Shown here one piece after another: positions 1 through 383 of a stretch of DNA of 15,605 bases. Every line of letters starts with the position of its first letter. Position 1 is the stretch's first letter. Below the pieces are notes generated by a model. The model ran no database searches and was not told the origin of the DNA. It saw only the letters and a program-made list of their open reading frames with translations. The DNA comes from a virus (Duplodnaviria > Heunggongvirae > Uroviricota > Caudoviricetes): IMG/VR virus record IMGVR_UViG_2671180577_000016, one strand, 5' to 3'. The translations under genes and the position numbers were made by a program.

Positions 1-87
1 TTCACTGATCGAAAGTTGATTTTCAAGAACCGTTCTGACAGCTTCGGCTTTGAACTCTTTAGAGTAACGTTGGGTTTTTCTGCTCAT
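1..87 (-). CDS. IS3-family transposase OrfA, N-terminal fragment (runs off window)
   Basis: ATG at complement of 85-87; 29 codons are visible before the window edge; translation as above. Too short for the six-frame track. Confidence 0.6.
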   Translation of the reverse strand, partial: MSRKTQRYSKEFKAEAVRTVLENQLSISE

Positions 88-151
88 TATTAGCTCCTTC
101 TGATGCCATTCTATTTCAGGAAGGAGTGTCCGTTAAACTCAGGCTACCTCA
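1..151 (-). mobile_element. IS3-family insertion sequence, partial (terminal repeat plus 5' part of orfA; continues beyond window start)
   Basis: A minus-strand ORF starting at the complement of 85-87 reads MSRKTQRYSKEFKAEAVRTVLENQLSISE, which looks like the helix-turn-helix N-terminus of an IS3-family OrfA (IS600-like, from memory). On the minus strand the sequence ending at 151 reads 5'-TGAGGTAGCCTGAGTTTAACGGACACTCC, consistent with an IS3-family terminal repeat beginning TG. The exact end is uncertain. Confidence 0.6.
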
Positions 152-383
152 TACCGCGTTAACGGAGCGCGGCGTTGTCCCCTCATGGTCGCTGGTCCGG
201 TGCGATGGTGGAAGAAGCCGGATGTTTATCACTATTAATTGATAACACAGAAATGGATTCATTGATTTTCAGCACGTTTTTGTATTCGTATTATTGAACA
301 TCTGTTTATTTTACTTTTAACATATTGATAATAAAAAGAGCTGTAAATCTTTAGATGAGTCGATTTTGTCCGGGGAAGTTCAA

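Follow-up and report, generated by a model that had tools for sequence, protein, structure and literature searches.

The window analysed here comprises 15,605 nucleotides and corresponds to contig CYAX01000069.1 (15,605 bp) of assembly GCA_001285865.1 over its full length (IMG/VR record IMGVR_UViG_2671180577_000016). It starts with one end of the insertion sequence (IS) IS600, located at positions 1–151 on the minus strand, which is followed on the plus strand at 152–222 by the 3′ ∼40% of a ∼181-nt structured non-coding element. By comparison with related prophages, IS600 would lie in the non-coding interval that separates the lysis cassette from the packaging genes of a lambdoid prophage with an HK97-type head. 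In the initial annotation of this DNA, the IS had been placed next to the late region of a prophage, and a location after the lysis cassette and ahead of packaging and morphogenesis is supported by our results. The IS600 copy itself is routine, and its target is the interesting part. We consider it likely, with good confidence, that the IS600 end lies at an assembly break and splits a conserved folded RNA element of the lambdoid late transcript. The interrupted block, located between Rz and the packaging genes, is apparently a structured RNA of lambdoid late operons that is widely distributed and has not been described before.

The first 151 nucleotides of the window were identical to the end of IS600 at 151 of 151 positions (E = 2e-72), a match that was found in 3,209 complete E. 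coli records. The annotation in the matching E. coli records is ‘IS3-like element IS600 family transposase’, which bears out the earlier proposal of an IS3-family element with a minus-strand orfA at the window start. The part present is the orfA-proximal (left) end, which is cut by the contig end and lies antisense to phage late transcription. On the minus strand, positions 1–87 encode the first 29 codons of OrfA (MSRKTQRYSKEFKAEAVRTVLENQLSISE), with the ATG at 87–85. The terminus of the IS reads ...CTCAGGCTACCTCA at position 151 and is the same in the complete 1,264-bp copies of related prophages, a comparison that fixed the boundary at 151/152; the outer end had previously been estimated to lie near 151. 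This end begins 5′-TG and forms an imperfect terminal inverted repeat with the other end of the complete copies, as expected of the IS3 family. The left inverted repeat (IRL), at positions 126–151, has the reverse complement TGAGGTAGCCTGAGTTTAACGGACAC, compared with TGAGGTGTACTGGCAATAGCGGACAC at the other IS600 end in the locus from E. coli O121 RM8352 (L002), and the right inverted repeat (IRR) of IS600 reads TGAGGTGTACTGGCAATAGCGG.... Relatives with the same IS600 end carry a full orfA/orfB with an annotated programmed frameshift. In its 151 terminal bases, including the inverted repeat and the beginning of orfA, the window copy is thus identical to the IS600 known from Shigella and from Shiga toxin-producing (STEC) and enteropathogenic (EPEC) E. 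coli. The IS itself shows no difference, and the unusual feature is its target, a single non-coding element of 182 bp with seven distinct sites.

Position 152 is the first base with homology to uninterrupted prophages and corresponds to position 6001 of the locus from E. coli O103:H2 12009 (L001), used here as the uninterrupted reference. The window begins inside IS600 because the short-read assembly broke in a multicopy repeat, and not through a biological truncation. Since the contig ends 151 bases inside the IS, the second IS600 junction and the second copy of the target duplication lie outside it. The uninterrupted site in L001 reads ...CCGGGGTT-TAC-CGCG, and by analogy with the six related insertions described below, the expected 3-bp target duplication is TAC (152–154). 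On the same analogy, the window copy is presumably a simple IS600 insertion with a duplication of TAC. An insertion of this kind would join the far IS600 end, which is the IRR, to ...CACACCGGGGTTTAC (...GATACACACCGGGGTTTAC), with Rz/orf74 beyond. The best full-length relatives of the window were only ∼96% identical to it, and a 36-mer across 151/152 did not occur in any of the GTDB species representatives.

When the phage collection was searched with the uninterrupted interval, the widely shared part proved to be only ∼180 bases long (L001 5892–6072). Alignments A1 to A4 delimited a block of ∼181 nt with sharp edges. These edges are constant, running from (A/G/C)UGCGC... to ...GGAAGAARCCGGA, and no relationship between variants is seen in the flanks on either side. 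The block was present in 399–432 phage records, among them lambda, 434, HK629/HK630, many Shiga toxin (Stx) phages of both the Stx1 and the Stx2 type, a Shigella Stx phage and Salmonella phage S137, as well as in at least 120 IMG/VR contigs. It is located between borD and ybcV in the DLP12 prophage of K-12 (NC_000913.3 579,008–579,175) and between bor and lambdap78 in lambda, at roughly 46.87–47.03 kb. At 116 of 130 loci the upstream gene could be identified. It was in every case either a gene co-oriented with the block (Rz or orf74) or bor in the reverse orientation, so that the block consistently runs in the direction of the late operon. Positions 152–222 of the window were 100% identical to L001 6001–6071, and this part was recognised by the covariance model of the element with 58.7 bits (E = 4e-15).

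A scan of species representatives detected the core of the block only in Escherichia, barring a few records that stand under other names. Exact copies of the core occurred in a Nanosynbacter metagenome-assembled genome (MAG), in Pseudomonas yangonensis, in Thiomicrorhabdus and in a Proteobacteria MAG (L135, L136, L139 and L141). The sequence from the Proteobacteria MAG is a scaffold of 92 kb, and the other three are short or small, from 351 bp to 4 kb in length. Contamination with E. coli or lambda-like DNA, or mis-binning of such DNA, is the probable explanation for these records.

The secondary structure of the block was obtained with RNAalifold together with an inspection of the variants, and comprises eight helices. 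The 5′ part is a long helix stack of P1, P2, P3 and P3a with invariant internal loops, which is followed by a middle domain in which P5 encloses the hairpin P6. In the 3′ part, the interleaved stems S1 and S2 make up a predicted H-type pseudoknot, the loop of which (GGAAGAA) is invariant. On the plus strand of the window, P6 was located at 154–172 (CCGCG/CGCGG, loop UUAACGGAG), and the 3′ strand of P5, the fifth helix of the predicted structure, at 179–182 (CCCC), where it is separated by the IS from its GGGG partner. The pseudoknot stem S1 spans 188–206 (GUCGC at 188–192, GCGAU at 202–206) and stem S2 spans 196–222 (UCCGGU at 196–201, GCCGGA at 217–222), with the invariant purine-rich loop GGUGGAAGAA at 207–216. 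Three further candidate features were rejected. A long-range helix proposed by RNAalifold, CCGG(118–121)/CCGG(197–200), is broken by the B-type and S137-type variants, which compensate S2. A leader peptide at the 5′ edge of the block (ATG CGC ... TAA) and a start codon after the pseudoknot were not conserved across variants.

Among 35 E. coli-type variants, 97.5% of the pair cells were standard pairs, compared with 34–63% when the partners were slid against each other. Ten pairs changed on both sides, compared with 3.8 in shuffled alignments, and none of 500 shuffles reached the observed number. The more divergent copies, from Salmonella phage S137 and from two further IMG/VR types, had not been used in deriving the structure, and all types were aligned with a covariance model from which S2 was omitted. 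With the divergent copies included, 95.1% of the cells remained paired (33–58% when slid), and 25 of the 46 pairs were compensatory, as against 13.8 ± 1.9 in shuffles (0 of 500 reaching the observed value). The covariation score was 0.347, compared with 0.165. Stem S2, to which the alignment was not fitted, covaried at all six of its six pairs with 97.2% of cells paired, and S1 had 97.9% of cells paired and two compensatory pairs.

In the divergent copies, two C-G pairs of P2 are replaced by A-U and U-A, and an A-U pair of P3 by U-A. Hairpin P6 changes from CCGCG/CGCGG to CAGC/GCUG in Salmonella phage S137 or to UCGCA/UGCGA in one of the IMG/VR copies (L166), with four of its five pairs changing on both sides. 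In S1, GUCGC/GCGAU is replaced by GCGGC/GCCGU and also by GCCAG/CUGGC, and in S2, UCCGG/CCGGA is replaced by CUCGA/UCGAG or AUGAA/UUCAU, and also by UCCUG/CAGGA. The strand of the folded molecule was indicated by the wobble pairs. The count of 151 G·U cells, compared with 24 for A·C, favours a fold on the sense strand of the late transcript; 95.3% of cells were paired when the plus strand was read, compared with 85.6% for the minus strand.

The insertion point of IS600 was located between the GGGG strand of P5 and P6 (alignment A2, columns 126/127). The window retains P6 (154–172), the orphan CCCC strand (179–182) and the pseudoknot (188–222), and the 5′ 60% of the element lies beyond the IS. 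As this part and the P5 strand within it are split off by the IS, the RNA cannot form as a unit. What IS600 cuts in this prophage would thus be a ∼181-nt folded element of the Q-dependent late transcript and not a protein gene.

The element did not resemble known RNA families. No Rfam 15 match was found for positions 1–2000 of the window at E ≤ 1, and the intact locus (L001 5500–7500) gave chance-level matches only, with E values of 0.6 to 4.3 and scores far below the gathering scores. Nothing relevant was found in the literature on borD/ybcV, on a lambdoid pseudoknot or on the structure of the late transcript. The block shares with the Hfq-dependent small RNAs (sRNAs) of prophages that these are non-coding RNAs of lambdoid prophages in pathogenic E. 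coli. The sRNAs from prophages of enterohaemorrhagic E. coli (EHEC) and EPEC (AgvB, AsxR, PasA-D, Esr41 and STnc100) are Hfq-dependent and are mostly encoded at the PR′ moron site, from Q to the holin gene, with PasB located within the structural-gene operon; prophage sRNAs are 50–240 nt long, and several have mapped start sites and terminators. The block, in contrast, follows Rz, is without a conserved promoter or terminator, and has a predicted multi-helix fold with a pseudoknot. AgvB and AsxR (Tree et al., 2014) and PasA-D (Storz-lab preprint; Sci Adv 2021) were each rejected as candidates on both position and sequence. Neither the window nor the intact locus matched RF02702 or RF02703, and the PasB probe sequence was absent from the element.

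With modest confidence, the element is most likely a cis-acting folded segment of the late mRNA that may serve in processing, in stability, or in the binding of a protein or ligand. We favour a cis element over a free promoter-driven sRNA because the block lacks a promoter or terminator that is conserved, and because its orientation always matches that of Rz. A cis-acting role is also suggested by the invariant unpaired nucleotides within a complex fold. The put elements of HK022 and the pseudoknot of the T4 gene 32 mRNA are cis-acting structured phage RNAs. By analogy only, the block resembles these in being a folded cis segment of a phage transcript, and one of them is likewise an H-type pseudoknot with a purine-rich loop; there is no similarity in sequence or model, and the position, the ∼181-nt size and the architecture differ.

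The element was also found to be a repeated target of IS600. A scan for IS600 in either orientation covered, in one prophage family, the ∼590 bp that lead up to the 3′ edge of the block. It revealed six further distinct insertions. All of them fall within the 182 bp of the block, and the ∼410 bp that precede it yielded none. In L001 coordinates, the target duplications are 5901–03 (ATT), 5904–06 (GTC), 5948–50 (GAA), 5970–72 (GGG), 6063–65 (GAA) and 6067–69 (CCG), with the window site at 6001. The six copies are complete, each with a length of 1,264 bp and a 3-bp duplication, and two are in the opposite orientation. Sister O121 strains carry IS600 at different positions in the same prophage. 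With the window site, IS600 has inserted into the element independently at least seven times. If sites were uniform and independent, seven of seven would fall within the block (∼31% of the interval) with a chance of ∼3 in 10,000, a figure that includes the window site that prompted the scan; the six further sites alone, with the window site left out, give ∼1 in 1,000. The block therefore appears to be an IS600 hot spot, and no report of a target preference of IS600 for the block was found in the literature.

IS1397 and ISKpn1 are IS3-family elements that insert specifically into the palindromes of repetitive extragenic palindromic sequences and bacterial interspersed mosaic elements (REP/BIME). 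The likeness, which is an analogy only, is that of an IS3-family element found repeatedly in a short, structured, repeated, non-coding element. IS1397, however, uses a single defined position, within the loop of the palindrome, whereas the IS600 sites are scattered over the element in both orientations and have no common target.

An 8-nt perfect inverted repeat was observed across the IS junction, formed by TCCGTTAA (129–136, in the IS600 IRL) and TTAACGGA (159–166, in the P6 loop). This repeat may have served, by its likeness to the IS inverted repeat, as a cue for the insertion at the window site only, or it may be due to chance. As a general targeting cue for IS600 it was rejected, as it could account for at most one of the seven sites.

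A wider interpretation, which we put forward tentatively and hold to be somewhat doubtful in its full form, is that the element represents a new family of complex-folded phage RNAs in the late transcript of lambda-like phages, lambda included, with a specific biochemical role in cis, such as self-processing, the binding of a ligand or protein, or insulation of lysis from morphogenesis genes. The same element would also be a preferred site of IS600, and its disruption would be a recurrent way of disabling prophages in STEC and Shigella-like genomes.

Several points weigh against the interpretation of the block as a folded RNA that was split by a simple insertion. The structure was partly drawn by eye from the same sequences. 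The single-sequence folding stability of the intact element was no better than that of shuffled sequences (z = 0.05), so that it is the covariation that carries the case for the structure. The copies are close relatives of one another with a narrow range of hosts, being confined to Escherichia, Shigella, one Salmonella phage and the divergent IMG/VR copies. A sigma-70 promoter is annotated inside the lambda-type block on the opposite strand (HK630, L145 1218–1244, corresponding to lambda ∼46.9 kb). The exact 151/152 junction was absent from 5,426 complete E. coli genomes, and the case for a simple insertion is one of analogy. Finally, the deduction of a hot spot is based on a single prophage family, with seven sites in the ∼590 bp that were scanned.

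The limited extent of that scan is what gives some weight to a different account of the clustering, namely that it reflects selection or sampling rather than a target preference, with insertions being tolerated or favoured in the block and lost from neighbouring genes. The fact that the sites extend over 170 bp without a common target sequence (ATT, GTC, GAA, GGG, TAC, GAA, CCG) also fits this account. It is nevertheless opposed by the occurrence of all seven sites in ∼31% of the interval and by the low expectation for the six further sites alone. Both orientations are represented and the O121 sister strains carry the IS at different positions, and insertions into Rz or orf74 of a resident prophage should harm the host equally little. 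We therefore regard selection or sampling as a possible but not a probable cause of the clustering.

It is unlikely that the window copy arose in another way than by a simple insertion, with recombination between IS600 copies having deleted or rearranged the far side and the prophage being a remnant cut from late control. The contig ends in the IS and holds nothing that contradicts such an event, the junction was unique among the genomes searched, and the O121 relatives gather several IS copies and IS-bounded deletions, for example one in which DUF3950 is joined to the portal gene via IS600. On the other hand, the six comparable copies are all complete, with 3-bp duplications and with the lysis genes directly upstream. 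The morphogenesis genes of the window are also as intact as those of its relatives, with a terminase large subunit (TerL) that is 99% identical and an open capsid gene.

The initial annotation had also suggested that an IS at this position may uncouple the morphogenesis operon from late control, or may mark a degraded, cryptic prophage. Forbes and Herskowitz reportedly found in 1982 that Q-modified RNA polymerase suppresses the polarity of insertions. On the antisense strand of IS600, the counts of terminator-like sites and outward promoter-like sites were not above chance. The downstream genes of the window were no more degraded than in relatives, and the gene of the terminase small subunit (TerS) was intact. 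In a CRISPR interference (CRISPRi) map of lambda, blocking of the co-directional lambdap79, just upstream of cos, was deleterious, and targeting of bor and lambdap78 was not (PMC10695390). This pattern is consistent with a late transcript that crosses the interval of the block.

The possibility that the block works as DNA, either as a promoter or operator (e.g., of bor), as a packaging-related protein site, or as a recombination module shared by recent descent, was judged very improbable. The lambda-type block and the borD-ybcV interval of DLP12 in K-12 are the same DNA as the bor promoter region, and both HK630 and HK629 annotate a minus-strand promoter (TGGACA...TACAAT) in the lambda-type block, 130 nt upstream of bor. 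The narrow host range, the similar sequences and the unremarkable single-sequence folding energy would also be compatible with a DNA site. The lambda-type promoter presumably serves bor, and some DNA-level function co-exists there. Its hexamers, however, arise from lambda-type-specific substitutions within the block and occur neither in the window/O103 type nor in the 434 type, TACAAT being replaced there by TACGGC, and many carriers of the block are without bor. As the hexamers are specific to the lambda type, the bor promoter was rejected as the cause of block conservation. A DNA site would moreover not predict 25 compensatory pairs, a covarying pseudoknot or an excess of 151 to 24 of G·U over A·C cells; the variation points to an RNA on the opposite, late-transcript strand. 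A function as DNA is further opposed by the flanks, which are not related from one variant to another while the edges of the block stay constant.

The initial annotation had quoted a reading frame across 152–242 and had considered it as the 3′ remnant of a gene interrupted by the IS. One open frame does exist as quoted: it is part of an open reading frame (ORF) at 126–242 on the plus strand, with 38 codons from a GTG inside the IS, ending ...TALTERGVVPSWSLVRCDGGRSRMFITIN-stop. In O103:H2, the uninterrupted site lies between the 74-codon ORF that follows Rz and a small 46-codon ORF, and an 84-codon ORF (L001 5837–6091) passes through it. ORFs over the block are annotated in PA2, in P22-like Stx phages and in others. 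In phage PA2 (L005 2518–2721) and in many Stx phage records, a 67-codon ORF over the block is named ‘Rz-like spanin’ and belongs to PHROG 6954, which the 84-aa ORF also matches with E = 2e-13. As this family was assembled from ORFs called over the same conserved DNA, the match provides no independent support for a gene.

The frame was stop-free in only 13 of the 35 representative variants and contained stops in the other 22, compared with 0 to 7 of 35 stop-free variants for the remaining five frames, and its start codon was not conserved among them. Variable sites were evenly spread over the three codon positions (25/48, 30/50 and 24/51), without a third-position bias, and the ratio of synonymous to non-synonymous changes was the worst of the three frames (480:1645, as against 634/1474 and 543/1428 in the other two). 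Single-base indels occur within the block, for example in lambda and L051. The frame had no Pfam match, and RefSeq/PGAP leaves the region across the uninterrupted site blank in E. coli relatives, where the supposed gene is represented by an unannotated ORF only. The substitutions keep base pairs and not amino acids. These results demonstrate that 152–242 is non-coding and that the quoted frame is a chance frame, and suggest that the label ‘Rz-like spanin’ over the block is a propagated mis-annotation. The proposal that 152–242 is the 3′ end of a real protein gene truncated by IS600, with the ‘Rz-like spanin’ ORF of PHROG 6954 as the candidate, is therefore largely refuted and has next to no probability.

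Lambda and its relatives are among the best-studied genomes, and the interval from Rz to cos has been regarded as a location of accessory genes, with bor as an example. If the interpretation as a folded RNA element is true, the expression of the late operon has an unrecognised RNA-level component, which would be directly testable in lambda, and a family of spurious protein annotations would have to be retired. IS600 would then also have a preferred prophage target, which is relevant to the decay of Stx and other prophages and to IS-based strain typing.

Downstream of the element, an AT-rich stretch contains a small hydrophobic ORF of 46 aa (MDFMLTVSGVVILSIAYTADKYGCHLLSRIGAYCSLMLIFSSLFFE) at 384–524 on the plus strand, which is annotated as a hypothetical protein in relatives and had no Pfam or PHROG match. 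It is followed by a YlcI/YnfO (DUF3950) gene at 654–839 on the minus strand. The packaging and head module downstream of the IS starts on the plus strand with an HNH endonuclease gene at 881–1246, followed by the genes of the terminase small subunit at 1535–2098 and the terminase large subunit at 2095–3744. Between the HNH endonuclease gene and terS, positions 1336–1464 hold dense GTTAAC-centred repeats in direct and inverted orientation, namely GCCAGTTAACA/TGTTAACTGGC, AAATGTTAAC in three copies and GCAAATGTTAAC/GTTAACATTTGC. These look like a group of terminase or cos-region binding sites.

At the 3′ end of terL (3712–3744), the product is 99% identical to that of relatives up to residue 539, and the last 10 residues differ, giving 549 aa compared with 553. 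The spacer before the capsid gene (3745–3790) is shorter than in relatives, and this difference is probably a mosaic joint or a small indel. The fusion of protease and major capsid protein at 3791–5728 (Peptidase_S78 and Phage_capsid, 645 aa) is open in the window; its counterpart in O103:H2 12009 contains an internal stop and is flagged as a pseudogene. The portal region at 5940–8362 is made up of two ORFs with an ATGA overlap, one of 454 aa (Phage_portal) followed by one of 353 aa. The portal region of relatives is likewise split and is flagged by PGAP as ‘frameshifted portal protein’, which may be either normal for this group of phages or a defect common to them.

In the prophage of O121 RM8352 (L002 1810–10385), two further IS3-family copies separate the holin gene from the lysozyme gene. 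There is also a second IS600, at the border of a deletion that extends from most of DUF3950 through to the portal gene, and the HNH, terminase and capsid genes are gone. This prophage is therefore an example of prophage decay through IS activity.

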